Positions 1-20,688 of a DNA stretch of 63,711 nt are shown here, piece by piece. Made by a program: the position numbers and the translations under genes. Under the pieces are notes generated by a model. The model did no database searches, had not been told where the DNA came from, and saw only the letters and a program-made list of their open reading frames with translations. Positions within the stretch are counted from its first letter, which is position 1, and each line of letters starts with the position of its first letter. Origin of the DNA: a virus (lineage: Duplodnaviria > Caudoviricetes); IMG/VR virus record IMGVR_UViG_3300021976_000012, positions 1 to 63,711 of that record; one strand, 5' to 3'.

Positions 1-84
1 TAAAATTCATTGGCCACGTCACTCAGGCGTTGATGGTGCAGGAAACAGCTACTATGTATGTAAATACTGCAAGGTAGTAATGAT

Positions 85-273
85 ATGAATACGTACACAG
101 TAACATTCAGAGATACTGCACATGGATGGATTAAATTCCAGGCAGATAAGATTAACGTTGAAGAGTATTGGACTACGTTCTTAATTCTTGGCGAAAATAT
201 TCTTAAAAATAAAGTTGTTTATCGCGTGGCCAGTAATGAGATTTTGCATGTACAAACTACACATTCTGAATAA
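85..273 (+). CDS. hypothetical protein (62 aa)
   Basis: ORF with an AAGGT RBS-like element upstream; stops just before the first tRNA. Confidence 0.6.
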   Translation: MNTYTVTFRDTAHGWIKFQADKINVEEYWTTFLILGENILKNKVVYRVASNEILHVQTTHSE

Positions 274-282
274 TTTTATTAT

Positions 283-355
283 GCAGATATGGAGCAATTG
301 GCAGCTCACCTGATTCTCAATCAGGAGGTTACGGGTTCGATCCCCGTTATCTGTA
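283..355 (+). tRNA. trnE: tRNA-Glu(CTC)
   Basis: GCAGATA/TATCTGT acceptor, GAGC/GCTC D-stem, CCTGA-TTCTCAA-TCAGG, ACGGG-TTCGATC-CCCGT; no encoded CCA. Confidence 0.9.
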
Positions 356-356
356 C

Positions 357-558
357 GCACCACAGGTAGTGTACAATGCTTGTGGAAGGTAAGTCGGTAA
401 ACATATGAATAGAAACTATTGAAGGCACTGTAAGCTCGTCTTTGTCAGGATGACGCCAACTCTAGCACAATGTTCATATGGCTATATTAGTAGACAATAG
501 ACATGCTCGCACTGTGACGGGTGCCTCCGTATGTTGAGTTGAAAGTTAGCACCGACCA
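357..558 (+). ncRNA. putative structured ncRNA A between tRNA-Glu and tRNA-Ile
   Basis: nested helices 393-398/551-556, 400-407/528-535, 423-428/521-526; pseudoknot CAACTC 457-462 / GAGTTG 536-541; no annotated ORF. Confidence 0.5.
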
Positions 559-559
559 A

Positions 560-633
560 TGGTCATTAGCTCAATTGGTTAGAGCGCTGTGCTGATAACG
601 CAGAGGTACACAGTTCGAAACTGTGATGACCAA
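560..633 (+). tRNA. trnI: tRNA-Ile(GAT)
   Basis: TGGTCAT/ATGACCA, CTGTG-CTGATAA-CGCAG, CACAG-TTCGAAA-CTGTG. Confidence 0.92.
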
Positions 634-634
634 C

Positions 635-820
635 ATGGAACCTAGCTTAAATGATTTAGACAGATGTGAACATGGTAGACACAGTATTGATAACTGTTTC
701 AGTTGTCCTGATAGATGGTCTACAGGAAACTTATTTTTAGAAAATGGTCAACGAATTGGTACCACTTTATATGGTGAACCAATATTTGTAATAACAGTTA
801 GACATCGCAGAAAATTTTGA
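635..820 (+). CDS. small Cys/His protein starting at tRNA position 75
   Basis: ATG 635 lies 2 nt after the tRNA-Ile discriminator; CEHGRH and CFSC motifs. Confidence 0.65.
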   Translation: MEPSLNDLDRCEHGRHSIDNCFSCPDRWSTGNLFLENGQRIGTTLYGEPIFVITVRHRRKF

Positions 821-825
821 TTCAT

Positions 826-897
826 GGCCTCGTTGAGTATGGGTTAGCTTCTGAGTTTTTCACACTCAAGGACAGGGTTCGAGTCCCTGCGAGGCTA
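826..897 (+). tRNA. trnE: tRNA-Glu(TTC)
   Basis: GGCCTCG/CGAGGCT, TGAGT-TTTTCAC-ACTCA, CAGGG-TTCGAGT-CCCTG. Confidence 0.9.
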
Positions 898-898
898 C

Positions 899-1108
899 AT
901 GCCGAGAAGTATAGTAAGTAACATATCTATAACTGAACCAATGACACTAGAAGATTTACGTTGGTTAGTAAATCAAACTATTGGCTATCCTCCAGATAGT
1001 AAAGTAACAGTTGTAGCACATAAAGAATATAACCAAATGGATTGGGACGCAGCAAAAATTACTGTGAGCGCAGATCTTAAAAGCGCTGATACAGAAGCAG
1101 AAGAATAA
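899..1108 (+). CDS. hypothetical protein starting at tRNA position 75
   Basis: ATG 2 nt after the tRNA-Glu discriminator; 69-aa ORF. Confidence 0.7.
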   Translation: MPRSIVSNISITEPMTLEDLRWLVNQTIGYPPDSKVTVVAHKEYNQMDWDAAKITVSADLKSADTEAEE

Positions 1109-1118
1109 TTAAATACTA

Positions 1119-1226
1119 GCACATGAGGCCATGTAGCGAGGCAGCGGACTTTGGGTCCGGCTAGGTAGATGCAACATAACGGTCATAAATCCTAAGGTGA
1201 ATGTGGTGCGACTCCACACTTGTGCA
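1119..1226 (+). ncRNA. non-canonical tRNA-like RNA (TTG loop, about 40-nt variable region)
   Basis: GCACATG/CTTGTGC acceptor-like stem, GCC/GGC D-stem, CGGA-CTTTGGG-TCCG, T-like arm TGTGG-TGCGACT-CCACA. Confidence 0.5.
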
Positions 1227-1227
1227 C

Positions 1228-1287
1228 GGTAGTCTGACCGACTCTTAATCGGCATGATTGCAAGTGACTGTCAGGTCACGGCTGCCA
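1228..1287 (+). ncRNA. D-armless tRNA-Lys(CTT)-like RNA
   Basis: 7-bp GGTAGTC/GGCTGCC plus A, CCGA-CTCTTAA-TCGG anticodon-like arm, GTGAC/GTCAC T-like arm. Confidence 0.5.
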
Positions 1288-1330
1288 ACAGTACCTAGTC
1301 GCTGACACGGCGAAGTTGAGGCAGTTTTAA

Positions 1331-1402
1331 CGGGTTGTAGCTCATCGGTAGAGTGTCTGGCCTGGGACCAGAAAGTAGTAGGTTCAATTCCTACCTGCCC
1401 GA
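1331..1402 (+). tRNA. trnP: tRNA-Pro(TGG), C33 variant
   Basis: CGGGTTG/CTGCCCG, TCTGG-CCTGGGA-CCAGA, GTAGG-TTCAATT-CCTAC. Confidence 0.88.
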
Positions 1403-1403
1403 C

Positions 1404-1688
1404 GTGATTAAAAAGTTAATAGTTCCAATCATAGGATCACTGCTGTTAGTTACACTTGGTGCTGCTAATTGTGATTACAAAGATCCAGGTTTGCCCCCGC
1501 ATCCTGGTGTAAGCTATCCTCAAACACCTCTTACAGGTTCAGATGCTACTTATGATCCAGACATAAACTTTGGTAGTGCACCAGCACCATTAGAAGGTAC
1601 AAAGTGTACCAAATCGGGACAAGAAAAACGAGATCCTGGTACTGGTGAATTCGTTAGATGTGTCAATAAGATCTGGAAGCGTATATGA
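1404..1688 (+). CDS. putative lipoprotein (start GTG 1404)
   Basis: MIKKLIVPIIGSLLLVTLGAANC signal-like N-terminus begins at tRNA-Pro position 75. Confidence 0.7.
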   Translation: MIKKLIVPIIGSLLLVTLGAANCDYKDPGLPPHPGVSYPQTPLTGSDATYDPDINFGSAPAPLEGTKCTKSGQEKRDPGTGEFVRCVNKIWKRI

Positions 1689-2053
1689 AAAAGAAATACA
1701 ATCATGGTGAAGCTTTTTGCTTGATGAAGTATCAATCTGATGATGGTACTGAACAAGAGATCATCTGGAATAGCAGAGATGGCGTTACTCCAATGGTGAT
1801 CACAATGAAATCTGGTAAGACTGGAACACATGTCGATTGGTACAACGATAAGTGTGTTCCTGATCATGTACCAAGTCCAGGTGATAGAATCTTCATAGAT
1901 CTAACAGAAGAAAAAGCATTAGAAATTGCTATGAAGAATCTTAAGCGTTGGGAAGATGACGGCTTAGACATGCGTACTGCTCCTAATGCTATAGCACTAG
2001 CACAAGAATACATGGAACGAACAGGTTCACCAGATATTAAAGTTGTGGAATAG
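1685..2053 (+). CDS. hypothetical phage protein
   Basis: 122-aa ORF coupled to the previous stop (ATGA). Confidence 0.75.
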   Translation: MKKKYNHGEAFCLMKYQSDDGTEQEIIWNSRDGVTPMVITMKSGKTGTHVDWYNDKCVPDHVPSPGDRIFIDLTEEKALEIAMKNLKRWEDDGLDMRTAPNAIALAQEYMERTGSPDIKVVE

Positions 2054-2061
2054 CACAAAAT

Positions 2062-2142
2062 GGGTGTGTCCTAGCGGTCTAGGAATCGGTCTGTAAAACC
2101 GATGTGCATAGCACACTGTTGGTTCGACACCAACCATGCCCA
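2062..2142 (+). tRNA. trnY: tRNA-Tyr(GTA)
   Basis: GGGTGTG/CATGCCC, TCGGT-CTGTAAA-ACCGA, variable arm GTGC/GCAC, GTTGG-TTCGACA-CCAAC. Confidence 0.9.
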
Positions 2143-2143
2143 C

Positions 2144-2342
2144 GAAGTATCTGACATATGTACTCACCAAGCGTCATGTATTCCGTATGCGAATAGGAAT
2201 ATTTGATGGGACTGGTATGGGATCGCACCTAATATGTTGAAGAATTGATGACCGAACCAATACTGACAGTTCAAAACTGTCCTAGTGAAACGGTCTAGAG
2301 ATGCTATAAATACACATGTTGGTTGAAAGCATCTTTTCTTCA
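2144..2342 (+). ncRNA. putative structured ncRNA B after tRNA-Tyr
   Basis: long hairpin 2152-2239; junction 2238-2244/2336-2342, GACCG/CGGTC, GAGATGCT/AGCATCTT; T-arm-like GACAG-TTCAAAA-CTGTC; loop-loop pairing 2255-2262/2317-2324. Confidence 0.55.
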
Positions 2343-2374
2343 CTCACTACCATAATGAAAGGAGGTTGAAAAAT

Positions 2375-2503
2375 ATGTGGCACATTCCGTTTAAATGGAT
2401 TAGTGATTTACTAGACAAGAAGTACTGGGTGTGCAAGCACCGCTGGTGCTTTCGGGAGGCCACCTATGATTATAGATGTCCTCTTCATCAAAATGATCCG
2501 TGA
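2375..2503 (+). CDS. 42-aa Cys/His peptide absent from the ORF track
   Basis: strong AAGGAGGT RBS; MWHIPFKW...CKHRWC...CPLH. Confidence 0.6.
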   Translation: MWHIPFKWISDLLDKKYWVCKHRWCFREATYDYRCPLHQNDP

Positions 2504-2510
2504 AAAACTC

Positions 2511-2583
2511 GGGGTTTTAGCTCATCTGGTAGAGCGCTGCTTTTGCAAGGCAGAGGTGGTCGGTTCGAGTCCGACAAGCTCCA
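2511..2583 (+). tRNA. trnA: tRNA-Ala(TGC)
   Basis: GGGGTTT/AAGCTCC with G3.U70, CTGCT-TTTGCAA-GGCAG. Confidence 0.93.
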
Positions 2584-2584
2584 C

Positions 2585-2725
2585 ATGAAAAAAGTATTAA
2601 ATGTAACACATGAATTTCTCATAGATATCTGGGAAGGAATAGTAAACTTCGTAGAGCAAGAAGCGTTCTGGATTATAAATGTAATCAACACTATATTACT
2701 AATCATCCTCCTTATAATAAAATAA
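2585..2725 (+). CDS. small membrane protein starting at tRNA position 75
   Basis: ATG 2585; hydrophobic C-terminal helix. Confidence 0.6.
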   Translation: MKKVLNVTHEFLIDIWEGIVNFVEQEAFWIINVINTILLIILLIIK

Positions 2726-2765
2726 GTACTTGCAATCGTATCACAACGGTGAGAGGTGAAGTTGT

Positions 2766-3521
2766 ATGAGTGATGTTGCTGCGATACCTAATCCAGATAT
2801 CTCTACTATGTATTTTGATAATAATCCTATTCGATATTTCATGCATAATGAAGTTCTCTATGTTTGTGGTATAGATGTCACAAAAGCCTTCGGATATAAA
2901 GATGAATATGGACCACTCAGAACCGTTGAAGATGAAGACCGGGTAGTTTTACAGGTTCAGAATAGTCGTGTACAATTACGTCCGACTATTTTCATCAATG
3001 AGCCGGCTTTTTACGAATTAGCATTCAGATCAAACCTAGAAGCTGCTAGACGCTTTACCCGCAAAGTATCAGGAGAAATCTTACCAGCCATTCGTAGGAC
3101 TGGAAGATATGAAGGTGAAAGTTTAAACGCAATAGTCGGTAATACTGCTCGTCCTTGGGAACGTATGTATGATGAAGATTTTCGTGCATTAATTCCATCG
3201 ACTGGCATGTCTGCACCACAGTTCTATGAATTTCTTTATACCAGATTACATCCAGAGGGCACCTTAGATTCTATGAGATCGAGAATTGTAAAGAAATTCT
3301 CTGGTGGAAGAAAAGATAACTACGATATAGATACTGGTCTTCGAGTTCGCCTTCACCAATACTTCACAGATCTTGGAAGAAGTTCAAATAAATTCAAACA
3401 AGAGCAACTAGCACTTATTATTCAATACATGCTTAGTGGTAATTGTAATAAAAAAGAATTTCTAGTAGTATGCAATAAGGTCTTTAAACTAAGGGATCCA
3501 TTAGCTATCACAGCAAAATAA
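2766..3521 (+). CDS. Bro-N domain protein with a P63C-like C-terminus (antirepressor-like)
   Basis: INEPAFYELAFRS...ILPAIRRTGRY Bro-N signature; PWERMY...LY..L...RLHQYFT resembles P63C. Confidence 0.8.
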   Translation: MSDVAAIPNPDISTMYFDNNPIRYFMHNEVLYVCGIDVTKAFGYKDEYGPLRTVEDEDRVVLQVQNSRVQLRPTIFINEPAFYELAFRSNLEAARRFTRKVSGEILPAIRRTGRYEGESLNAIVGNTARPWERMYDEDFRALIPSTGMSAPQFYEFLYTRLHPEGTLDSMRSRIVKKFSGGRKDNYDIDTGLRVRLHQYFTDLGRSSNKFKQEQLALIIQYMLSGNCNKKEFLVVCNKVFKLRDPLAITAK

Positions 3522-3535
3522 TTCAAACAAAATAT

Positions 3536-3607
3536 GCCATAATAGTGTAGAGGTCTGCACACTAGATTGTCAATCTAGAAGTCGGGGATCGTTCCCCCGT
3601 TGTGGCG
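3536..3607 (+). tRNA. trnD: tRNA-Asp(GTC)
   Basis: GCCATAA/TTGTGGC, CTAGA-TTGTCAA-TCTAG, atypical T-loop ATCGTTC. Confidence 0.88.
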
Positions 3608-3608
3608 C

Positions 3609-3720
3609 GTAGGATATAGTGATGGAAGCGCGGCCACGCATATTGGTTGTATGAGGAGCCTCATTTGTGAGCTAGGTGTGCACACCGAATTCATGATAGT
3701 AGGAAGTAACTGTATCTTAC
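3609..3720 (+). ncRNA. putative structured ncRNA C
   Basis: 12-bp terminal stem GTAGGATATAGT/ACTGTATCTTAC enclosing several hairpins; begins at tRNA-Asp position 75. Confidence 0.55.
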
Positions 3721-3724
3721 TGTA

Positions 3725-3799
3725 GTTCCGTATAGCCCAAATGGAAGAGGCGGCTGGTCATTCGGCGTCAATGTGTAGGTTCGATTCCTACTGCGGAAC
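3725..3799 (+). ncRNA. tRNA-like RNA with a collapsed anticodon loop (isotype undetermined)
   Basis: GTTCCGTA/TGCGGAAC stem, Leu-type D-arm GCC..GGC, canonical T-arm, but GCTGG-TCAT-TCGGC in place of a 7-nt loop. Confidence 0.65.
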
Positions 3800-3813
3800 C
3801 TTAAGGAGGCATT

Positions 3814-4065
3814 ATGGCTATTGAAAGAAAGTACGGAAGAGTCACCACAGAACGTGGTACCATCGGTGAAGATGAGCCTGTGGTGGTTTTCCGAGCACAG
3901 GATGCTCTGCTTCCAGAATTACTAGCAATGTATTTGCACATATGTCATACGGCTGGATCTCCACAACACCATCTTGATGGAATCAAGAAGACAATAGTCG
4001 AAGTAGAAGCGTGGCAGGCAAAAAACTTCACTAAGATTCCAACCAGTGATAGTTGGAGACCGTGA
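3814..4065 (+). CDS. small phage protein (DEPVVVFRAQD motif)
   Basis: AAGGAGG RBS; 83 aa. Confidence 0.75.
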   Translation: MAIERKYGRVTTERGTIGEDEPVVVFRAQDALLPELLAMYLHICHTAGSPQHHLDGIKKTIVEVEAWQAKNFTKIPTSDSWRP

Positions 4066-4261
4066 AAATACATGTGATTAATGTGGAAACCATGGTCACT
4101 TATTGTAGCAAGGGTGTCTACGGTGACAAAGCTATAACATTAGAAGATGCTAGAGACATGACAAACAATCTATTCTTTGACTGCGAAGACTGCTACAAAA
4201 TACTATCAGATGACAATGAAGCAGTCAGTGAATAGTTTTCCCTAACAGATGGGAAATAGTC

Positions 4262-5272
4262 ATGCTCTATGGTGTTGATGTACATGATGGATACCAAAAG
4301 GGTCTATCATTTCCACTACTTGCACGACAGGGATATTCCTTTGCAGCAGTGAAGCTTACCCAAGGTGTTGATTATGCTCGTGATTTGGGCGATGATTGGG
4401 TTCGGGCATCACGTGACGCAGGTTTAATTCCTGGTGCTTATCATTGGATAACTCGGACTGATGGTGCTACACAGGCTCGCTGGTTCTATAAAAAGATATT
4501 AGAATCTGGTGGACCTACTGGTATGCTCATTCAGCTCGACTGTGAAGCCGACGCTACCTATCAAGATGTACTAAACTGGAAGGCAGAATGGAATAGGTTA
4601 TCAAACAACCACCCATTCTTGCTTTACACTGGTAAGTGGTGGTGGGATGCTAGAAACTGGAATGGACCAAACGTAACTCCGTACCTGTGGGACTCACATT
4701 ACATTAGTGCAGACACAGATACAATCCAAGATGATCCAGCAACATTCGCTGCTAAGATTCCTGCCTCATACTTTAATCCAGGATATGGTAGTTGGACTTC
4801 TAACTCAATACTTCAGTTTACAAGCAGAGGTGATGCTGGTTCGCTCGGCAACAACGTCGATCTAAATGTTACTCGTATGACACGTGAGCAATTAGTTGCA
4901 TTAACAGGCACGACAGTTGATGTAGGAGCGAAAGGAACAGACATCATGATAAGTAGAGTCGCAATGGTTCGGGTACGAGTTGATGGTGTGCTACCTCCAG
5001 CAGACAAGCCGAACTCTTTCTATGTTGGCGATGGAATCTTCTATACCAATGCTGTCACCTGGAATCAGGTTACTGATGCTCAGGCAGAGGGAGCAAAAAC
5101 TAAAACGTACACAGAAGATGATGATTGGAAAGGTTGGGTAGGACGTAATCTGGCAGGCGCAACAAGCGCACCAGTAACCGCGACTATCACTCAGGATCAG
5201 CTCAACGCGGCTGTCCTAGCGAACGTACCGGCCATCGCAGCGGCGCTAGCGTCCCACATCAAGGTCGTATAA
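4262..5272 (+). CDS. endolysin, GH25 muramidase
   Basis: GVDV..YQ, VKLTQG, GAYHW, LDCE, LLYTG, ILQFTS, VDLN GH25 motifs plus a C-terminal extension. Confidence 0.9.
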   Translation: MLYGVDVHDGYQKGLSFPLLARQGYSFAAVKLTQGVDYARDLGDDWVRASRDAGLIPGAYHWITRTDGATQARWFYKKILESGGPTGMLIQLDCEADATYQDVLNWKAEWNRLSNNHPFLLYTGKWWWDARNWNGPNVTPYLWDSHYISADTDTIQDDPATFAAKIPASYFNPGYGSWTSNSILQFTSRGDAGSLGNNVDLNVTRMTREQLVALTGTTVDVGAKGTDIMISRVAMVRVRVDGVLPPADKPNSFYVGDGIFYTNAVTWNQVTDAQAEGAKTKTYTEDDDWKGWVGRNLAGATSAPVTATITQDQLNAAVLANVPAIAAALASHIKVV

Positions 5273-5291
5273 AAAGTTTTTACGGTTTGTC

Positions 5292-5328
5292 GCTGGTGGC
5301 TATAGACACAAAGGTCGTAGCCACCAGT
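5292..5328 (+). terminator. stem-loop after the endolysin
   Basis: GCTGGTGGCTAT/GTAGCCACCAGT inverted repeat; no long U-tract. Confidence 0.5.
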
Positions 5329-5335
5329 AGACCTT

Positions 5336-5409
5336 TCTCTCATAGCACAATGGTAGTGCGGTCGGCTGTTAACCGATTGATCTTAGTTCGATTCTAGGTG
5401 AGAGAGCCA
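5336..5409 (+). tRNA. trnN: tRNA-Asn(GTT) with encoded CCA
   Basis: TCTCTCA/TGAGAGA, GTCGG-CTGTTAA-CCGAT; the A of CCA is the A of the next ATG. Confidence 0.92.
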
Positions 5410-5792
5410 TGAACCTACCTTGGGATGATCCCAACCATGATGTTTTAGCAGATATTAGAAAAGCATATCAAGATGGATGGAATAAACTAGGTATGAGCGT
5501 ACCAATGAAACCAAGCGATCCAGCATATTGGATGTTGTCTAGTCCACATACAAGCACACCTACAGTGTTCCGAAAAGGCTGTTACATTTGTGAAGATCCT
5601 GAGTTTGCACAAATGGGTATGCCACTATGTAAACCATGTAAACCATGTCAAGAAGCTGGACGTGGTGATGGGCACAGTGCTGCCGACAATCCTATTTGTG
5701 ATGATTGTGGTCATGAATGTCACCCAGAATGTGGATGCTACCCGGAGCTAATGAATAATGACAATAATAGTAATGACATCGGGGTCGTTTGA
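5409..5792 (+). CDS. Cys-rich zinc-binding protein
   Basis: several CxxC pairs; ATG overlaps the tRNA CCA. Confidence 0.7.
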   Translation: MNLPWDDPNHDVLADIRKAYQDGWNKLGMSVPMKPSDPAYWMLSSPHTSTPTVFRKGCYICEDPEFAQMGMPLCKPCKPCQEAGRGDGHSAADNPICDDCGHECHPECGCYPELMNNDNNSNDIGVV

Positions 5793-6186
5793 TCTCTTCC
5801 ACATCGGTCATGCTAGGTATTTAGAATCTGCTGCATCATATGGTACACTGTTAATTGTAGCAGTAGAAACTGATGAACTAGTTCGAATGCGGAAGGGTCC
5901 TGGACGTCCAGTAATCCCACAGGCTGAACGCTTAGAGATGGTTCGCTATCACCGTAGTGTTAGTGATGTAGTACTTAAAAAACCCGGTGAAAACATTGCT
6001 GAGAAGTACAGTCCTGACCTAATTATTGTTAGCGATGATAGACCTAGACCCAAGATTCCAAATGTAAATGTTATTGTTCTGCCAAGGATGGCACAAACTT
6101 CTACTAGCAATATTGTTCGTAACATTGAGATTCACAGAAGAGAAGATGCTACACGGTATGAAAAAGGCGATCGTCTGGTACCATAA
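5758..6186 (+). CDS. HIGH-motif cytidylyltransferase-like nucleotidyltransferase (TagD/RfaE-II family)
   Basis: GSFDLFHIGH, KGPGRPV..ERLEMV, STSNIV. Confidence 0.88.
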   Translation: MTIIVMTSGSFDLFHIGHARYLESAASYGTLLIVAVETDELVRMRKGPGRPVIPQAERLEMVRYHRSVSDVVLKKPGENIAEKYSPDLIIVSDDRPRPKIPNVNVIVLPRMAQTSTSNIVRNIEIHRREDATRYEKGDRLVP

Positions 6187-6525
6187 AGATGGAGATAGTC
6201 TTGCTTTAGTCACTGAGCCATGGTGGGTACCAACCTTTGAATTTTTAATTCATCGCATCGCACCATGCTGTGGTTTATTTGGCTGGTTGTCAAGCAAATC
6301 AGATAAATTTAGTGAATTACTTTTCGATATAAATGGAAATCTACAAAACTTTGCATACAAAAAGCAAAGAGAAATTTATACTACACCAATTGAATCAGGA
6401 TGCAAAGCATCTGTAGCTCTTTACGGTATCAAAGGTCATTCATGCTGGAAAGATGAATGCGAATATAAGGAGGAAGATATGCCTGACTTGTAAGTACCAG
6501 AAGTACTGGTACAGGAGAGGCATAT

Positions 6526-6882
6526 GTGTCCAACACGGACAAGACCAAACCATACTGGGTTCAGATCATGCAAAATCGTGAACTTCAAATTGAAGATCAT
6601 GACCATCGTAATGGTATTTGTGATCTAGACTTCAGAATCAAACCATGGCGTGATTACACTTCTTGCAACTATCATATTAGATACTACAGTAAGACTGGTA
6701 GAAGGATTTTCGGTCGTCCATCTAAGGCAGAACAATCTTATCGAGCAGAAGCAAATGGCAGTGCACGTACCAAGCTTCGTAACGCTGTTAGTGAACTACG
6801 TAAAATGGCTATTGAGGATGTCGAGGACTGGGATATAGTTATTCCTCGCCACCGTCACTCTGCTCTCTGGGATGTGGATTAA
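6526..6882 (+). CDS. hypothetical basic protein
   Basis: GGAGAGG RBS; 118 aa. Confidence 0.7.
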   Translation: MSNTDKTKPYWVQIMQNRELQIEDHDHRNGICDLDFRIKPWRDYTSCNYHIRYYSKTGRRIFGRPSKAEQSYRAEANGSARTKLRNAVSELRKMAIEDVEDWDIVIPRHRHSALWDVD

Positions 6883-7089
6883 GATGGTGTATCTTGATTG
6901 TCCAGATGCTTTGTATGGAAGACATGGACCTACAGATAGTTATGGTAAGTGTCCATGGTGTGGTAAAAAAGTTGAGAGTGTAGCATTAAAACCACGGGCA
7001 GATCGCAATGTAAAATCTGATGCTTTAGCATCTTACGATTACTATTATGATCCTGATTATGGCATTGATCCTTATGATCGCTACTAGGA

Positions 7090-7362
7090 GTGATGGTGAT
7101 ACGAGATCCTGTAAAATGGAGCGCGTACCAAAAACAAAGGTATAAAGAATCAAGACTAAGAGCATTAGCAATACTTGGAAACAAGTGCGACTCCTGTGGT
7201 GATGATGAATTAGATCATCTACAACTAACTTACAAAGATGGATCTATAAGTGGTAGTCCACCAAGTAGAATCCTTAATATATCCAAGGCTAGATTCGATG
7301 TAGAGATTAAGAAATGTAAAGCTGTATGTTTAAGGTGCTACAACATTAATAGATACCAATGA
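7090..7362 (+). CDS. degenerate HNH-like zinc-finger protein
   Basis: LGNKCDSCG...CLRCYN; the usual catalytic histidines appear replaced by Tyr. Confidence 0.6.
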   Translation: MMVIRDPVKWSAYQKQRYKESRLRALAILGNKCDSCGDDELDHLQLTYKDGSISGSPPSRILNISKARFDVEIKKCKAVCLRCYNINRYQ

Positions 7363-7373
7363 CAACTTAATAT

Positions 7374-7446
7374 GATCCGTTAGCTCAGATGGTAGAGCAG
7401 CGTCCCTTTAAGTCGCGTGTCCTCGGTTCGACCCCGAGACGGATCA
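7374..7446 (+). tRNA. trnK: tRNA-Lys(TTT), C33 and U-U stem variant
   Basis: GATCCGT/ACGGATC, GCGTC-CCTTTAA-GTCGC, CTCGG-TTCGACC-CCGAG. Confidence 0.9.
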
Positions 7447-7447
7447 C

Positions 7448-7672
7448 ATGAACAAAATTACGCTAGAAGAGCTAAGATATATAACACGATTGACCCAACT
7501 AGCTGTAGCAGATAAAATGGGAAACCAACAATCAACCGTATCAGATATGGAAAGGGCTTTCCCACTCAATTGTAGATTAAGTACACTTCGTAGATACATT
7601 GATGCTATTGGTGGTGAACTAACAATAAGCATTAAGTTAGATAAAGAAACTTATATTTTGACCCACGAATAA
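7448..7672 (+). CDS. XRE HTH protein, HigA-antitoxin-like
   Basis: LEELR..LTQ..VA..MG..QSTVS..ER...LSTLRRYI.A.GG.L. Confidence 0.8.
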   Translation: MNKITLEELRYITRLTQLAVADKMGNQQSTVSDMERAFPLNCRLSTLRRYIDAIGGELTISIKLDKETYILTHE

Positions 7673-7678
7673 AAACAG

Positions 7679-7749
7679 TCAGGTATTGTGTAATGGTAGC
7701 ACGTCGCACTTTGGATGCGAAAGTCCTAGTTCGAACCTAGGTATCTGAG
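7679..7749 (+). tRNA. trnQ: tRNA-Gln(TTG)
   Basis: TCAGGTA/TATCTGA, TCGCA-CTTTGGA-TGCGA. Confidence 0.92.
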
Positions 7750-7791
7750 CGTAGCAATTGCTACAAAATTACAAACTAGCTGGGAATTAAA

Positions 7792-8733
7792 TTGACATTT
7801 ACATTTGGAGTATTCCTATTCGTCGCATTACCACTAGCAGTGATATTCTTCTTCGTGATGCGTCATTATCAGAAGAAGCTACATGTACTCACAGTAGAAG
7901 GTGGTCGTCACTCAAGCATTGATTCTGCTGATTTTGCTGCTACTGGTAATAAATGGGGATTTGGGATCGCTACTGCGCTTGCCATTCTCATGTTGGTACT
8001 GTCCAGTGTATGGTTCGTACCAGTACGCAACGTAGGTATTGTTACTGCGTTCAATAACCCTACTGGGACCACCACAGGTAGTGGCCTTAAGGTTACCTGG
8101 CCCTGGGAAGAAGTTGTTGATTTTGACGCTTCGATTCAGGTTTCAGACCATACTGGTGACAAGAATTGTTCTACAGTTCGTATTGGTTCACTAGCTACGG
8201 CGTGTGCTGAGAACCGTATTCAGTGGCAGGTATTGGATTCAGCAGCTCCTAAGTTGTACAAGGATTACAAAGGTAACTTTGAGAATCTGAAGAATAACTT
8301 GGTAGAAACGAAAATCCAAAATGCCCTAAATACGGTATTTGCCACATATAACCCTTTGGCACAGGTAAACATTCAGACTGGACAGACCAGCTTTGATGGT
8401 GCTAAGCTTGGCAAAGACGTTGAGGACGAACTAAACAGAACTATCGGATCTGATATTAAGATTGTATCTGTATCAATTCCGCTCGTTCACCACGACGCCA
8501 AGACTGAAAACAACATCAAGTCATTCCAAGATGTTATCGCCAATGCCCGTATTCTTGACCAGCTATCTTCTAATGCTGACAAGGAAAAGGCAATTGCAGA
8601 TAAGCAAAGAGTCTTCCTTACCCCAGAGTACATCCAAAACAAGTGTGTTGACGAGTCAGTCAAAATGGGCGTTCCGCCTGGCTTGTGTCTCGTTGGCGGA
8701 GGAGCAATCGTAAATGCGCAAACCACAAAGTAA
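7792..8733 (+). CDS. SPFH/band-7 membrane protein
   Basis: two N-terminal TM helices, VPVRNVGIVTAF..P.G...GL....PW, C-terminal coiled coil. Confidence 0.85.
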   Translation: MTFTFGVFLFVALPLAVIFFFVMRHYQKKLHVLTVEGGRHSSIDSADFAATGNKWGFGIATALAILMLVLSSVWFVPVRNVGIVTAFNNPTGTTTGSGLKVTWPWEEVVDFDASIQVSDHTGDKNCSTVRIGSLATACAENRIQWQVLDSAAPKLYKDYKGNFENLKNNLVETKIQNALNTVFATYNPLAQVNIQTGQTSFDGAKLGKDVEDELNRTIGSDIKIVSVSIPLVHHDAKTENNIKSFQDVIANARILDQLSSNADKEKAIADKQRVFLTPEYIQNKCVDESVKMGVPPGLCLVGGGAIVNAQTTK

Positions 8734-9013
8734 ATTCTGGACTGTTTGGCTAGCAGTTGTTGGCATTGCCATTGCAGGTATCTTTTCACTCAGTGCCTGT
8801 GGTATTGGTAAGGCAGTAGAACCATTTAAGGATGCGCCTGTCGGTGTTCAAAATAATGGTTCAGCCGACGGTGTTAGTATGCCAGATGGTTTCTCGAACG
8901 TGTCTACCAAGTGTGATCACGGCAATAGAATTTATGTTGCTTACCATGGTGACAATACATATGCTGCAATTGCTGTAGTAGCAGGCGACCCAACCTGTGG
9001 TACTGGTCAATGA
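8714..9013 (+). CDS. putative lipoprotein
   Basis: signal peptide with LSAC lipobox. Confidence 0.75.
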   Translation: MRKPQSKFWTVWLAVVGIAIAGIFSLSACGIGKAVEPFKDAPVGVQNNGSADGVSMPDGFSNVSTKCDHGNRIYVAYHGDNTYAAIAVVAGDPTCGTGQ

Positions 9014-9192
9014 ACAAAGCGACTTTTGAGCGTGCATTAAAAGCAGTAGCTGCTGGTAAGGCACTCAAGGAAGTTAAAGTTAGAAATGTAGAAACTGATG
9101 TTGTTCTCTCTATTAAGAGCATTAGATTTGATGGAGTAGACGACACAATTTACATTGAAGTAGAATAGATAAGAGGGCTCGCAAGAGCCTGC

Positions 9193-9266
9193 GCGAGCGT
9201 ACGCTAATGGTTAGTGCGGCCAATCTTATAAATTGGTGGTTATGGGTTCAAGTCCCATCGCTCGTA
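9193..9266 (+). tRNA. trnI: tRNA-Ile(TAT)
   Basis: GCGAGCG/CGCTCGT, CCAAT-CTTATAA-ATTGG, ATGGG-TTCAAGT-CCCAT. Confidence 0.88.
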
Positions 9267-9267
9267 C

Positions 9268-9612
9268 GTGCGTATACACGTACTAGATTCTAAACTAGTA
9301 CCACACTTTGATTTGCGACGTGATGGCAATGAATGGTATTGGACACCCAAGGAGAAATACAAAGTGGAACAAGATACGCCACCGCTATACAAAATAACAT
9401 CATTACCAGAAGAACTTAAGACACATTATAAGTGTGGTATATGCGATTCAGAAATTTCCATGGATGATGCTGCAATGCTACAGTTAGCAATGGAAAAGCA
9501 CGAATGTATAAATGATTCTGTTGGTCCATGGTACTCGTACATCTTTACATTCTGGTCTGCATTCATAGTGCTTGTTGTCTGTGTCACATTGGTTAAAATT
9601 TTTGCAAAATAG
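9268..9612 (+). CDS. membrane-anchored zinc-finger protein starting at tRNA position 75
   Basis: GTG 9268; CGIC..HEC; C-terminal TM helix. Confidence 0.65.
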   Translation: MRIHVLDSKLVPHFDLRRDGNEWYWTPKEKYKVEQDTPPLYKITSLPEELKTHYKCGICDSEISMDDAAMLQLAMEKHECINDSVGPWYSYIFTFWSAFIVLVVCVTLVKIFAK

Positions 9613-9618
9613 AAATAT

Positions 9619-9689
9619 GCCTCCATTGCATAATGGTAATGCCATGCTCTTGTAAAGCATTGATCGGTGTTCGATTCACCGTGGAGGCT
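9619..9689 (+). tRNA. trnT: tRNA-Thr(TGT)
   Basis: GCCTCCA/TGGAGGC, ATGCT-CTTGTAA-AGCAT. Confidence 0.92.
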
Positions 9690-9690
9690 C

Positions 9691-9837
9691 GTGACAAATA
9701 AAATTCAGCAAGTTAAATTGACAGGAGGTAGTACCACTGTACGTACGGTATTTCTGGTACTAATTCCTTTCACCTGCGGGTTAAGTATTATTCCTTGGAT
9801 TGCCTACGAGATTATTCATTGGGCAGGTAAACATTAA
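9691..9837 (+). CDS. 48-aa membrane peptide starting at tRNA position 75 (absent from the ORF track)
   Basis: GTG ACA AAT...; hydrophobic core; stop overlaps the next ATG (TAATG). Confidence 0.6.
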   Translation: MTNKIQQVKLTGGSTTVRTVFLVLIPFTCGLSIIPWIAYEIIHWAGKH

Positions 9838-10643
9838 TGGACTTTCTGACTTATGTACTTCTCACTTTACCTATTGCGATATTCATTGCCGGTTTGGTGA
9901 TGATGTATGCATATGGATATAAGCATGGCAAGCGTGACACAATAAGAAACATGACAGAGACACTAGAAATGGGGAAACTTCCAAACTATGAGTCAGGCAA
10001 ACATGTTAGATGACGCCACACCAATATTCAGTTATGAAGAAATTCGACTCAACTATCTGAGTACAGCAGATTCCTATGTAATAACAACTCCACTTGGAAG
10101 ATGGATTGCATTACCATCTGAGAATTTAGAAGACATGCTTGTGATTCTCACAGCAGCTAAGAATCATCGTGATTTCGGATTTGCTGTCTGCAACGATGAG
10201 ATCTACTAATGACTACTCCCAAAAAGATATACGACAATGGAGCAATATCAGTTAAGCATGACGGTGACTTTAACACTTACTTGATTTCTAATGTCTATGG
10301 CAATGGTCATGTTAGAATTCCAGCAGGTGACTTAGAGAAATTTGCAAGTGCAATTCAGATAGCACAATTACATCGTGATCATGGTGAGATTAATGGCTAG
10401 TAACGCAGCAAGATTCGAAGAAATTTCACCTGGAGTATTTCGTACATTCAAGCTTCAGAGTGATGGGGGTGGCAAATCATTCAAGACATACAAAGAAGCA
10501 GTTGATCATGTTGCTGTTCAAGAAGAATTGTGGAATTCTAGTATTCATGGTAGAATGGAATATAGAATTGACATGATTGATACCACCATAATTAGTCTTG
10601 ATGGTGAAATAATGAACGAACCACCAAAATGATTAAGCACCAT

Positions 10644-10716
10644 TCTACCGTAGTGTAATTGGTAGCACACCTGACTCTGAATCAGGAGATTTCAAGTTCG
10701 AGTCTTGACGGTAGAA
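10644..10716 (+). tRNA. trnQ: tRNA-Gln(CTG)
   Basis: TCTACCG/CGGTAGA, CCTGA-CTCTGAA-TCAGG. Confidence 0.92.
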
Positions 10717-10719
10717 CCT

Positions 10720-10846
10720 TGGGCGCCCAGGTTGGGATAACTTAGCTGTGTCATAGGCTGTCTAGCACTCCTTATAGTTCGCGCGAATAAGTGATCTAGG
10801 CTGAGCAGCATAAAGAAGGATAGGGGTTCAAATCCTCCCCGCTCAC
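10720..10846 (+). ncRNA. mini tmRNA-like / tRNA-like RNA
   Basis: TGGGCG/CGCTCA acceptor-like stem with G3.U70, T-arm GGGG-TTCAAAT-CCTC, long hairpin CTTAGCT/GGCTGAG in place of an anticodon arm. Confidence 0.55.
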
Positions 10847-10877
10847 TCATAATAAAACTTAATGAATGTAGGTAGCA

Positions 10878-11216
10878 ATGGCTGGGAGAACTAATATAAA
10901 GCTTAGTGATGAGCTTAGAGATAGACTGTCAGAATTAAGAAAAAATGCTGGTAATCCTTCATTAACTCATATGGGATTAGTTGTTGGGGTTAGTCCATCT
11001 ACAATTCGTACTGCTATGTCTGGTTATTCAGTAAGATGGAAGACATATCAGGCAATACTAGAAGCATTAAATGCTACTGAAGAACAGATATTAGAGTTCC
11101 GTAATGCTTGGATTAGATCTAAGACATCAGTAATGCCAGAGGTTCAAGGCCCACTGTGGGCACAGGAACTTCATAGGAAGTTTGATCTGATTATCGAAAT
11201 GTTGGAGAAGAAGTAA
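10878..11216 (+). CDS. XRE-type HTH DNA-binding protein
   Basis: LSELRKNAGNPSL..MG...GVSPSTI.......W. Confidence 0.75.
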   Translation: MAGRTNIKLSDELRDRLSELRKNAGNPSLTHMGLVVGVSPSTIRTAMSGYSVRWKTYQAILEALNATEEQILEFRNAWIRSKTSVMPEVQGPLWAQELHRKFDLIIEMLEKK

Positions 11217-11222
11217 AGGTTT

Positions 11223-11295
11223 GCCCGCGTAGCTCAATGGACAGAGCAAAACCCTTCTAAGGTTGATGTTGCTGGTTCGAATCCAGTCGCGGGCA
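11223..11295 (+). tRNA. trnR: tRNA-Arg(TCT)
   Basis: GCCCGCG/CGCGGGC, AACC-CTTCTAA-GGTT, GCTGG-TTCGAAT-CCAGT. Confidence 0.92.
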
Positions 11296-11603
11296 CGAAC
11301 AAAATGGAATCCCCCACCATAAAAAGGACACCCCACCAGTGATAGAACTAAATACTAAACCTTGGTGTAACTGTCACACCACAGGTAAATGGCTAAGACA
11401 GGACGGGTATACGCTCGACCGTGCATCTGGTATATGGGTTCACAGTCGCTGTAGTAAGCCTAGTCGGATGAACTATGACCGTAATGTGCTTGGTCTGCCA
11501 CAGATCCCACAACAGCGTAAGTCTGATGATATTTACGAAGACGAACGCAAATATGATCTGCGGAAAATGGCTATGGCAGAAATTAATTCTGAATTAGATT
11601 GGG

Positions 11604-12098
11604 ATGATGACGACGACGATGACTATTAATATGCGTGAACATTTTGTACAATCAAACTTGATCGAAGACATTAAAGATATTCATGAATTGCCAAAATCTG
11701 AAAAAGCTTGGGATTATATTAACAAGATTAATACACTAACTAAAAACGATATACTAAACGTTCATGCCATAATCATGGAAGATCTACTATGGGATGATCG
11801 ATATGTTGGTAATTATCGTGATGTCAATGTAACCGTAGGTGGACGTACATGTCCACCACATTACATTGTACCACAATTAATGGATGTATGGATTGGCAAC
11901 ATGAGATTTTGGCAAGACATTGATCCAATGAATTGTCATGTTCAGTTTGAACACATTCATCCATTCGTTGATGGCAATGGTCGAACTGGCCGTATGTTAA
12001 TGTGGTGGCATGAAGTCAAACAAGATAAGGAACCGACTCTTATTACATATAATAAGCGCTGGGACTACTATGCTCTGTTTGACAAGAGAGCTATATAG
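11604..12098 (+). CDS. Fic-domain protein (start may be 11619 or 11631)
   Basis: intact HPFVDGNGRTGR motif; SNLIE; GNYRDVNV. Confidence 0.92.
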   Translation: MMTTTMTINMREHFVQSNLIEDIKDIHELPKSEKAWDYINKINTLTKNDILNVHAIIMEDLLWDDRYVGNYRDVNVTVGGRTCPPHYIVPQLMDVWIGNMRFWQDIDPMNCHVQFEHIHPFVDGNGRTGRMLMWWHEVKQDKEPTLITYNKRWDYYALFDKRAI

Positions 12099-12122
12099 AT
12101 AAAGATCAATGTAGTCAGAAGC

Positions 12123-12151
12123 TTGACACCCATCGCACGACGTGATAGGCT
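12123..12151 (+). promoter_or_regulatory. sigma70/HrdB-type promoter inside an inverted repeat
   Basis: TTGACA-N17-TAGGCT flanked by GTCAGAAGCT/GGCTTCTGAC (12114-12157). Confidence 0.7.
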
Positions 12152-12161
12152 TCTGACGCCA

Positions 12162-12234
12162 GGTTCGGTACCATAGTGGCCAATGGGACAGACTCTTAAT
12201 CTGTTTGCCGTGGGTTCGAATCCCACCCGAACCA
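12162..12234 (+). tRNA. trnK: tRNA-Lys(CTT)
   Basis: GGTTCGG/CCGAACC, ACAGA-CTCTTAA-TCTGT. Confidence 0.92.
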
Positions 12235-12259
12235 CAATATCTAACGAAAGGAGGAGAAT

Positions 12260-12382
12260 ATGGATATTGGAGAAGAAAGAAAATCTGTAACTTTTGAACC
12301 AGTAGAAGAACCATCTATAGAAGAAGTTCCAACTGAACAACCTCCTATAGAAATCCCGCAGGAGGAACCAATTGCGGTCTGA
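12260..12382 (+). CDS. 40-aa acidic Pro/Glu-rich peptide (absent from the ORF track)
   Basis: AAGGAGG RBS; MDIGEERKSVTFEPVEEP... Confidence 0.65.
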   Translation: MDIGEERKSVTFEPVEEPSIEEVPTEQPPIEIPQEEPIAV

Positions 12383-13085
12383 TCACTCAGGAATTAACCG
12401 AGCATTAATTCCAGGTACTATATATGCGTACCGATGGTGGGTGGTTAATCCAATAACATTAACCATGCACGCATTAAATGGAGAACTCTGGAGTTCAGAG
12501 ACAACTGCCCAATGTATCAAATATACTTATGCATTTGATATAGCATGGCCTGGATCTGGTGGCGGTCGTCATAATGCACCAGATCCAGGTTGTACGTGTG
12601 GTATCTATGCTAGATATCTGCCAACGGATCTAGACGGAATAGTTGAATCAAGGTACAATACCACGTTTGTTCCAGGCGTTGTTGAAATCAAAGGTAATGT
12701 CGAATTAGGTACTCTTGGCCTTCGTGCAGAGAAAGCTAAAATTTTAGCCTTCTCGGATAATGGTCATCCTAGTCAACAGTATTGTTGTAGTGAAATAGCT
12801 GAAAAATATCACGTTGAGTTATATCATGATTTCAAACTACTGGTCAAGGATTATCCTCCTTCAGATCTTGGAGATCTAATCTTTGGTGATGACCATAGTA
12901 ATCGTCAATCTTACAATCGTGCGTTCCATGAAGCAATGGATTGGATTAATAAATCAAATCCACGTTCAGAGTATTTCTACGGCAGAGAACAACGTATATT
13001 ATCAGAGCAAATAAAAGAACTAGCAACATTAACAGTAACAAAACCAGAAGATATTAAAAAAATGCTAATAGATTTCGGGATGTGA
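12372..13085 (+). CDS. hypothetical protein with an H.AP...C.CG.YA metal motif
   Basis: 237-aa ORF overlapping the upstream peptide. Confidence 0.75.
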   Translation: MRSDHSGINRALIPGTIYAYRWWVVNPITLTMHALNGELWSSETTAQCIKYTYAFDIAWPGSGGGRHNAPDPGCTCGIYARYLPTDLDGIVESRYNTTFVPGVVEIKGNVELGTLGLRAEKAKILAFSDNGHPSQQYCCSEIAEKYHVELYHDFKLLVKDYPPSDLGDLIFGDDHSNRQSYNRAFHEAMDWINKSNPRSEYFYGREQRILSEQIKELATLTVTKPEDIKKMLIDFGM

Positions 13086-20178: not shown

Positions 20179-20688
20179 ATGGGTAACGTTTATTATGATA
20201 CTGAATTCCTTGAAGACGGCAAGACTATCGAGTTGATTTCCATTGGAATGGTTAACGCGCTTGGTGAAACGTATTATGCCATCAGTGAGCAAATGCCAAT
20301 GGAACGTATTCTAGATCACCCATGGCTTATGGAAAATGTAATGCCGCATTTGCCTAAGTTAGACAGTGGAGATCCTGCTATTAAGAGCAGGGCAACCATT
20401 GCTGACGAGGTAAAGGAATTTATTACTCGTCACCCTAATCCTAAGCTATGGGCCTGGTACGGTGCGTACGATCACGTAGTGCTATGTCAATTGTTTGGAA
20501 CTATGGTTGGACTTCATGATACTGGAATTCCAATGTTTACAAATGATCTACGCCAAGCGGTGGATGGTTTTTCTTTTAGACTTCCTAAGCAAGTTAGTAC
20601 TGAACACAATGCTCTTGATGATGCTATGTGGGTAAAAGATTCATACGAATGGTTTGTAGCCAAAAAAGCAAAACTAATCACAGGATGA
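20179..20688 (+). CDS. DEDD 3'-5' exoribonuclease (Rv2179c/RNase AS-like)
   Basis: YDTEFLEDG..IELISIG, LWAWYGAYDHVVLCQLFG, HNALDDA. Confidence 0.9.
   Translation: MGNVYYDTEFLEDGKTIELISIGMVNALGETYYAISEQMPMERILDHPWLMENVMPHLPKLDSGDPAIKSRATIADEVKEFITRHPNPKLWAWYGAYDHVVLCQLFGTMVGLHDTGIPMFTNDLRQAVDGFSFRLPKQVSTEHNALDDAMWVKDSYEWFVAKKAKLITG

Follow-up and report, generated by a model that had tools for sequence, protein, structure and literature searches.

Open reading frames flush against the tRNAs of a phage array

The window analysed here is the complete 63,711-base contig (41% G+C) of IMG/VR virus record IMGVR_UViG_3300021976_000012, and the system in question is an array of transfer RNA (tRNA) genes in its first 12 kb, interleaved with small open reading frames (ORFs), eight of which begin directly at the 3' end of a tRNA. 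ARAGORN called 16 tRNAs, all on the + strand and spanning positions 283 to 12235, and their positions were checked with Rfam, which recovered 15 at or above its gathering score. The discriminator base (N73) is followed by C74 in all 16, and a CCA end is encoded by tRNA-Asn alone, the other 15 of the 16 genes lacking it as RNase Z substrates do; for Mycobacterium tuberculosis, 30 of 45 tRNA genes are reported to lack an encoded CCA (PMC10435456).

At seven of the 16 tRNAs the 3' spacer is C74 alone and an ATG or GTG occupies positions 75 to 77. In order along the + strand, these are tRNA-Ile(GAT) (560-634; discriminator A633, C634), followed by ORF635 (635-820, ATG, 61 codons); tRNA-Glu(TTC) (826-898; A897, C898), followed by ORF899 (899-1108, ATG, 69 codons); tRNA-Pro(TGG) (1331-1403; A1402, C1403), followed by ORF1404 (1404-1688, GTG, 94 codons); tRNA-Ala(TGC) (2511-2584; A2583, C2584), followed by ORF2585 (2585-2725, ATG, 46 codons); tRNA-Lys(TTT) (7374-7447; A7446, C7447), followed by ORF7448 (7448-7672, ATG, 74 codons); tRNA-Ile(TAT) (9193-9267; A9266, C9267), followed by ORF9268 (9268-9612, GTG, 114 codons); and tRNA-Thr(TGT) (9619-9690; T9689, C9690), followed by ORF9691 (9691-9837, GTG, 48 codons). 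At one further tRNA the spacer is CC: in tRNA-Asn(GTT) (5336-5409) the discriminator G5406 precedes CCA, the last base of which is also the A of ATG 5409 (CCATG), opening ORF5409 (5409-5792, 127 codons). Five of the eight starts are ATG, three are GTG and none is TTG. A prior interpretation made from the letters alone (the sequence-only reading) had placed the seven discriminators, the starts at position 75, the shared A in tRNA-Asn and the C74 of every tRNA exactly here, with a count of 15 tRNAs that now becomes 16.

Chance is a poor explanation of this pattern. On the + strand of positions 1 to 12600, an ATG or GTG opening at least 40 codons is found at 117 of 12596 positions, a background rate at which at least seven hits in 16 trials have a probability of P=6.3e-11 (P=2.7e-6 if any ATG or GTG is counted). 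The profile of start offsets from the tRNAs holds seven starts at +2, one at +3 and no other before +15. On the opposite side of the tRNAs, the distance from a stop codon to the next tRNA 5' end is variable (5-63 nucleotides, nt), so that the exactness is specific to the 3' junction and the zero-spacer flanking typical of mitochondria is found on the 3' side only.

Several lines of evidence suggest that the eight start codons are genuine. Scored against the phage's own codon usage, all eight ORFs are positive in frame and negative out of frame (for example +0.31 for ORF899; weakly so for ORF635, +0.04, and ORF2585, +0.08), and homologues or family matches were found for six of the eight. ORF635 and ORF2585 have no further in-frame ATG, GTG or TTG downstream. 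The N-terminus of ORF1404 combines a basic n-region, a hydrophobic core and a Cys (VIKKLIVPIIGSLLLVTLGAANC) in a lipoprotein-type signal peptide that runs from residue 1, and use of its sole alternative start, at codon 30, would delete that signal. ORF7448 encodes a helix-turn-helix (HTH) protein (Pfam HTH_37/HTH_3 and PHROG regulator families) and occupies exactly the gap between tRNA-Lys(TTT) and tRNA-Gln(TTG); its frame offers no start between the upstream stop and ATG 7448, and the Pfam matches begin at residues 5-15, the Pfam and PHROG matches together at residues 1-15. For ORF9268, which encodes a C-terminal hydrophobic helix, the frame is free of starts from the upstream stop at 9229 to the GTG. 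For most of the eight, the sequence rules out a downstream start or makes one unlikely.

The N-termini of homologues coincide with these starts. ORF635 belongs to a conserved Cys-rich family (motif LDRCEHGRH...CP...GN...RIGT) whose homologues form 44 clusters; 32 were aligned with the window ORF, and in this 33-row alignment P0012, P0020, P0021, P0035 and P0038 share its start column and P0007-P0010 begin one residue before it, nine homologues in total. P0005, the collection's own call of ORF635, begins three codons inside the tRNA (MTNMEPSL). P0006 reads MTN-V-TDPSL, and because MTN is the in-frame reading of the 3' end of the window's tRNA-Ile, its source genome probably carries a GTG at position 75. 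P0004, a 69-residue protein from a 70.9-kb contig with 52% identity to ORF899, is in the same register with a V start (GTG), and P0002 (69% identity to ORF1404 in the search, 71% in the alignment) starts MKKLII, within one residue of ORF1404; for P0002, P0004, P0006, P0007 and P0010 the junction is deduced from the protein N-terminus only. The view that the N-termini are real, argued earlier from the signal at 1404 and the HTH at 7448, therefore gains from the homologues as well. Among the remaining ORFs, the Cys-rich ORF5409 matches phrog_4694 (E=3.9e-23) and ORF9691 is a predicted small membrane protein, and ORF2585, with a hydrophobic C-terminus, is the least supported of the eight, its sole database match being a 46-residue protein that is 96% identical.

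The arrangement is retained in a DNA-level relative, a 14.6-kb metagenomic contig (L004/L017; 42% G+C) that is syntenic with 5.3-12.6 kb of the window at a nucleotide divergence of ~25-30% (70% identity for the encoded Band-7 protein); a metagenome scan returned this same contig again. In L004 three tRNAs are followed by an ORF (Asn, Ile-TAT and Thr), in each case with the start codon at position 75, and the spacing from tRNA end to start, put forward in the sequence-only reading as the quantity to compare among relatives, is in this one unchanged. After tRNA-Ile(TAT) both genomes read C+GTG; after tRNA-Thr, L004 has C+ATG where the window has C+GTG, and the next 19 residues of ORF9691 (2-20) are nearly identical, with synonymous changes present. 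The N-terminus of ORF9268 is the best-conserved part of that protein, its first 25 codons differing from L004 by seven synonymous and three non-synonymous changes, including CGT>AGA and CGA>AGA (Arg to Arg). These comparisons point to protein-level constraint from codon 2 in both ORF9268 and ORF9691, and for ORF9268 translation would therefore have to begin at or before codon 2. In L004, tRNA-Asn is followed by C+ATG and a different ORF of 63 codons that overlaps the ORF5409 homologue; since the start position is kept there with C+ATG and other downstream sequence, the CCA of the window's tRNA-Asn is probably incidental. L004 has no HTH gene, its tRNA-Lys(TTT) being followed by tRNA-Gln after 9 nt (L004 2476-2484). 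Judging from the two genomes, the tRNA spacers gain and lose genes, and any gene present lies flush against C74. A soil variant (run X4) has the HTH gene and, in place of tRNA-Gln, 70 different letters.

Initiation signals, promoters and C74 at the junctions

A Shine-Dalgarno (SD) sequence at usable spacing is absent from the 20 nt upstream of all eight starts. SD-like bases are present before 899 (GAGG, 4 nt) and 9691 (GGAGG, 3 nt), both in the acceptor stem, in agreement with the earlier judgement that such bases are too close or buried in the acceptor helix. Genes that follow a tRNA without abutting it have a spacer of at least 14 nt and a clear SD in three of four cases (AAGGAGG before 3814, AAGGAGGAG before 12260 and AAGGA before 11339), TTG 7792 having a spacer and no SD. 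The spacing from tRNA to gene is therefore bimodal, either zero or at least 14 nt. TTG starts are absent from the junctions of the window (0/8) and of L004 (0/3); in mycobacteria, an ATG or GTG is reported to suffice for leaderless initiation (PMC6448022). Over their first 36 nt the eight ORFs fold less stably than 31 other genes do (-2.6 vs -4.2 kcal/mol, one-sided P=0.029). The absence of an SD was considered as a discriminating argument and dropped, since 52 of the window's 116 putative genes have no SD-like motif.

Promoters inside the tRNAs, flagged in the sequence-only reading as something to look for, were not apparent. The 20 nt before each of the eight starts contain no TANNNT -10 hexamer, and only two such hexamers occur within 40 nt, at -25 and -39. 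Across the array, promoter-like (sigma-70-like) sites number 27, against 36.2 +/- 5.5 expected from shuffles, and terminator-like sites number 8 against 8.1 expected. With a -10 element missing, the messenger RNAs (mRNAs), if leaderless, would be so by processing and not by transcription initiation.

In the actinophage arrays examined, C74 is invariant among comparable tRNAs. Counting those without an encoded CCA, it is present in 15/15 tRNAs of the window, 6/6 of L004, 27/27 of phage Byblos, 26/26 of Ankus, 27/27 of LinStu, 28/28 of Blueeyedbeauty and 11/11 of Grayson, in 24/24 further tRNAs across 26 IMG/VR contigs, and in the chromosomal tRNA genes of an Arthrobacter (14/14) and a Streptomyces (16/16); a Yersinia jumbo phage has it in 11/11 (as C-N-A) and Bacillus phage PBC6 in 3/9. 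In several actinophage arrays an adjoining tRNA can begin directly after C74 or CC (Met-Met and His-Cys of Byblos and Blueeyedbeauty), and at such borders a cut by RNase P would produce an upstream tRNA that ends in C74. C74 would accordingly seem to remain with the tRNA, and the next unit, be it a tRNA or an ORF, to begin at position 75, in which case the mRNA would be exactly leaderless; alternatively, a cut by RNase Z after N73 would leave a leader of one base. We also considered RNase E, for which a mycobacterial cleavage preference of RN|CNU is reported (PMC10641625, PMC6448022), as the window has C74 in 16/16 tRNAs and U76 in 11/16. The reading of N73|C74-N75-U76 as a mycobacterial RNase E site was down-weighted because U76 is rare in host-type CCA-less chromosomal tRNA genes (Arthrobacter 1/14, Streptomyces 1/16) and because C74 is also invariant in the Yersinia phage.

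Junctions of the same kind were looked for in other phages and in cells. A survey of 159 distinct tRNAs from five other actinophages and four viral contigs, related phages included, gave +2 as the commonest offset for an ATG or GTG opening at least 40 codons, and 43 tRNAs from a Bacillus phage, a Yersinia phage, a cyanophage and a CCA-type viral contig had no such start nearer than +9. One instance is gp135 of Blueeyedbeauty (L018 23411-23685), annotated from a GTG inside tRNA-Leu(GAG), with an ATG at position 75. For cells, we scanned one genome per prokaryotic species with the pattern T-loop-N11-CATG, which yielded at least 120 loci and 69 usable tRNA junctions; the ATG at +2 opens at least 100 codons in 19/69 junctions as against 7/88 at +6 (odds ratio 4.4, P=0.002), a statistic that ignores kinship, Planktophila-like and Microbacterium loci being recurrent. 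Conserved genes starting at position 75 of a CCA-less tRNA were found at loci L215, L219, L177, L228, L275, L225 and L218, and the Pfam domains of such cellular junction genes start at profile positions 1-2, within residues 5-15. They comprise an NTP_transferase + Hexapep (GlmU-like) gene after tRNA-Gln in Microbacterium, a Response_reg + ANTAR gene after tRNA-Leu in 'Ca. Planktophila', an aldo/keto reductase gene after tRNA-Arg in an Actinomycetota, an RlmL-like gene after tRNA-Ser (L275), an FBPase gene after tRNA-Ser in a Bacteroidota metagenome-assembled genome (L225), and a glycosyltransferase (GT2) gene after tRNA-Thr in a Kaiserbacteria. In the Microbacterium family, the 3' end of this tRNA-Gln was found with at most two mismatches in 19 of 151 genomes, where the following codon is ATG in 11, GTG in one, TTG in one and another codon in six, a count that the mismatch limit biases towards ATG. 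The same junction occurs at low frequency in other actinophages and is also present in cellular genomes.

tRNA processing as a candidate source of leaderless mRNAs

We consider it probable, at roughly 60%, that cleavage at the tRNA 3' ends releases mRNAs that are leaderless or carry a 1-nt leader. The first 12 kb would be transcribed as long RNAs, with tRNAs as the punctuation between small accessory genes, and the location of all features on a single strand, with promoter- and terminator-like sites not in excess, is consistent with one precursor. Each tRNA would need to be excised to function, and an endonucleolytic 3' cut behind either the discriminator or the invariant C74, the work of host RNase Z or of some other nuclease cutting 5' of C, would free the downstream RNA with a 5' phosphate and with AUG or GUG at its first or second nucleotide. 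The freed mRNA would then be translated by the leaderless route that is routine for actinobacterial ribosomes. If excision is obligatory and the cut endonucleolytic at N73/C74, a (C)AUG or (C)GUG RNA with a 5' phosphate would be unavoidable, and because a 5' ATG or GTG is sufficient in the host clade, selection could place ORFs flush against the tRNAs. Exonucleolytic 3' maturation would destroy the start of the message, so the exact abutment argues for an endonucleolytic route.

The individual components of this scheme are known: mitochondrial punctuation, release by RNase Z, and leaderless translation. As described for mitochondria, tRNAs lie against coding sequences on a polycistronic strand (PMC8601606, PMC6924987), and here too tRNA excision would define mRNA ends, with the mRNA beginning at or next to its start codon. 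Unlike mitochondria, the present case is a bacterial phage, known here from sequence alone, in which about half of the tRNAs abut an ORF, the tRNA 5' gaps are 5-63 nt, the rest of the array's genes rely on SDs or translational coupling, and the nucleases would be bacterial host RNase P and RNase Z or E. A tRNA 3' cut that frees a functional downstream RNA is also described for the RNase Z-processed co-transcripts of tRNA and small nucleolar RNA of archaea and plants (Tko-sR44/tRNA-Arg, Nanoarchaeum and plant examples; PMC4247193), where the product is a small non-coding RNA, whereas here it would be an mRNA that opens with a start codon. Actinobacterial leaderless mRNAs, reported as about a quarter of transcripts in the host clade, likewise have ATG or GTG at the 5' end and no SD (PMC6448022). 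Leaderless mRNAs known so far arise as primary transcripts, with a 5' triphosphate and a -10 element some 7-12 nt upstream, whereas here the -10 is missing and the 5' end would come from cleavage and bear a monophosphate. The tRNA cluster of phage T4 is co-transcribed with stable RNAs and includes CCA-less tRNAs matured by host RNase BN/Z, and resembles the present array in being matured by host nucleases with CCA unencoded in some tRNAs; we know of no ORFs that start at tRNA 3' ends in T4. Escherichia coli translates leaderless mRNAs poorly. In the literature searched, in which subscription journals were incompletely covered, we came across no account, for either phages or bacteria, of leaderless mRNAs that abut a tRNA or arise through tRNA processing, and none of these components in combination there.

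An unlikely alternative is that ribosomes enter the precursor internally, before or midway through its processing, and initiate without an SD, in which case excision would be unnecessary and might compete with translation. SD-less initiation would not be unusual, given the 52 putative phage genes mentioned above and a reported 53% of leadered M. smegmatis genes without an SD (PMC6448022). The regions just 3' of the start codons are A-rich and weakly structured, in keeping with this possibility. Against it, the 30S subunit requires ~15 unpaired nt ahead of the start codon, which at these junctions form the acceptor and T stems of a stable tRNA. Internal initiation would also leave unexplained why the start is at exactly +2 and not anywhere in the first 10-20 nt, and why spacers, where there are any, come with strong SDs.

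We regard as quite improbable that pure compaction has pushed the ORFs to the first unconstrained base after C74, without coupling to tRNA processing and with low or incidental expression. The genome is dense, with many ATGA and GTGA overlaps, and of 26 other viral contigs with a member of the ORF635 family, 25 place it in an ordinary, tRNA-free context and one 64 nt after a tRNA. Compaction is argued against by the tRNA 5' gaps, which are not minimised, by the persistence of arrangement and start codon in L004 across its divergence from the window, and by the sharing of the junction by conserved cellular genes such as the GlmU-like one; moreover, a leaderless translation route would still be required.

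Promoters embedded in the tRNA genes, with transcription starting at the A or G of the start codon to give primary leaderless transcripts, are the usual reported origin of leaderless mRNAs in actinobacteria (PMC6448022, PMC4681348), and are very unlikely here, since TANNNT is missing from the last 20 nt and the only two within 40 nt lie at -25 and -39, sigma-70-like sites fall below the shuffled expectation, and the constraints on tRNA sequence leave little room for a -10 in eight different tRNAs. That the ORFs or these starts are artefacts, with real starts downstream or frames open by chance, finds some support in the weakly scoring ORF2585 with its one near-identical match and in an SD-led alternative start in ORF9268, and appears largely refuted by the codon-usage scores of all eight, the homologues or families of six, the conservation of two from codon 2 in L004 and the improbability of the pattern (P=6e-11).

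The anatomy of the junctions, their conservation, the genuine start codons and the lack of SD or promoter-like elements are features of the DNA itself. All predictions of the sequence-only reading that the sequences could address agreed with it, so that its interpretation is partly supported. Release by tRNA processing goes beyond these features, and several points weigh against it. That the array is co-transcribed, which nuclease cuts, where exactly the 5' end falls and that the products are translated are all steps that we infer. A cut after the discriminator would give a 1-nt leader (2 nt for tRNA-Asn) together with a 5' monophosphate, and an encoded CCA, such as that of tRNA-Asn, blocks RNase Z in some bacteria. 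The link to the RNase E motif RN|CNU is a weak one as judged from the tRNA sequences. An SD-like motif lies near the early start in only 64 of the 116 putative genes, ORF9268 and ORF5409 have structured 5' regions (-9.6 and -6.3 kcal/mol), and ORF9268 has an alternative GTG at 9364 preceded by an AAGGAG SD. L004 is the sole DNA-level relative in the comparison. Finally, the spike at +2 that the sequence-only reading expected across related phages was borne out in part: +2 is the commonest offset in the actinophage survey, and the peak there is weak, with 7 of 159 tRNAs against a mean of ~2.3 per offset.

A broader and more tentative proposal, which we think somewhat less likely than not, is that cleavage at C74/N75 is a general and overlooked route to leaderless mRNAs in bacteria with SD-independent translation (Actinomycetota, Bacteroidota and Patescibacteria) and in their phages, which the present lineage would have taken furthest, as a mitochondrion-like punctuated polycistron of 12 kb in which each matured tRNA switches on the gene behind it. 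If tRNA processing does release these mRNAs, upstream tRNA excision would be a third way to make a translatable 5' end, beside promoter-defined leaderless transcripts and SD-led mRNAs; the yield of the phage accessory genes would be linked stoichiometrically to tRNA maturation, and it would become clear how genes without a ribosome-binding site can be packed against tRNAs. Gene callers misplace such starts, the calls for ORF635 and gp135 beginning three and two codons inside the tRNA respectively, suggesting systematic mis-annotation of tRNA-abutting genes. The cellular examples (GlmU-like, ANTAR response regulator and FBPase) make the idea testable in culturable bacteria.

The phage, its probable host and other features of the array

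The window encodes a capsid-E-like protein, a Mu-type portal, a large terminase, a UDG-PolA fusion, a primase/DUF3987 protein and an SNF2 helicase, and these genes identify it as a tailed phage, a siphophage of ~64 kb that probably infects a soil actinobacterium. A megablast of positions 1-12000 against the phage collection found no close relative, the sole match being tRNA-Ala, and searches of viral contigs with the Band-7 protein, the GH25 lysin, ORF1685, Bro-N, P0004 and the ORF1404 alignment returned no relatives. Homologues of the Band-7 protein (7792-8733) were found in 366 phage records, every one an actinophage (Mycobacterium 256, Streptomyces 89, Gordonia 15, Rhodococcus 5 and Mycolicibacterium 1), and those of ORF5409 in 104 phage records, all of Mycobacterium, Streptomyces, Rhodococcus or Mycolicibacterium. 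With phage-record homologues of both proteins found in actinophages alone, an actinobacterium is very probably the host. The low G+C content is no argument against such a host, as the tRNA region of Rhodococcus phage Grayson is likewise 41% G+C. Phage DNA was matched in five DNA runs, all soil metagenomes from three studies, with no RNA run among the matches; variants from four soil runs, present as short contig pieces, show no junction change among the differences listed and speak neither for nor against processing at the junctions. A Band-7 gene also lies inside the tRNA arrays of Streptomyces phage Blueeyedbeauty and Rhodococcus phage Grayson. A scan of 38 window ORFs with Pfam found no RNase Z or CCA-adding enzyme. 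An Rv2179c-like 3'-5' exoribonuclease domain is encoded at 20179-20688, and the best 80 genomic loci for this protein are nearly all from Actinomycetota; the phage exoribonuclease might act at tRNA or mRNA 3' ends. The array itself also includes a cytidylyltransferase-like gene (5758-6186) and a Fic/DOC-domain gene (11604-12098).

The remaining tRNAs of the array are tRNA-Glu(CTC) (283-356), tRNA-Tyr (2062-2143), tRNA-Asp (3536-3608), an odd tRNA (3726-3800), tRNA-Gln(TTG) (7679-7750), tRNA-Gln(CTG) (10644-10718), tRNA-Arg(TCT) (11223-11296) and tRNA-Lys(CTT) (12162-12235). The odd tRNA (Rfam tRNA score 29.6, gathering score 29) has a two-base anticodon call (ca), is drawn with a short anticodon loop and is labelled SeC|Met by ARAGORN; the strong SD and ATG 3814 come after it. 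The stretches that follow Glu-CTC, Tyr, Asp and an element at 1119-1226 had been taken for structured RNAs, a proposal that was not upheld: they are non-coding by codon-usage score, their folding relative to shuffles is modest (z of -1.2 for 357-559, -1.8 for 2144-2365, -1.4 for 3609-3725 and -2.4 for 1227-1330) or positive (+0.5 for 1119-1226 itself and +0.6 for 10719-10850), and none matched an Rfam family. The 1119-1226 element, called by neither ARAGORN nor Rfam, is 108 nt long; its fold shows an acceptor-like stem (GCACA.../...UGUGC) together with a T-arm-like hairpin, and A and C come next, as they do in the tRNAs. A second tRNA-like element lies directly after tRNA-Gln(CTG), at 10720-10846, and is conserved in L004 (about 5391-5517); it is read as a tRNA-Arg(CCT) with a 48-nt insert in the anticodon loop only when ARAGORN is run with introns and a lowered threshold, and has no Rfam match. 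At L004 5890-5970, the position of the window's tRNA-Arg(TCT), the T arm is kept and there are seemingly extra bases, with no ARAGORN call.

Two further features surround tRNA-Ile(TAT). A hairpin just 5' of the tRNA (9170-9192, GGCTC-GCAA-GAGCC) has a counterpart in L004 (4201-4222, GTCCC-GAAA-GGGAC) in which pairing is preserved despite the change of sequence, and may be a stabiliser of the upstream mRNA 3' end or a processing signal. Positions 9264-9301 contain two perfect 7-bp inverted repeats, the first of which (GTACGTG...CACGTAC) covers the tRNA 3' end and the start codon of ORF9268, and the second (GTACTAG...CTAGTAC) its codons 5-12; both stay paired in L004 through a C-to-T change that is also synonymous.

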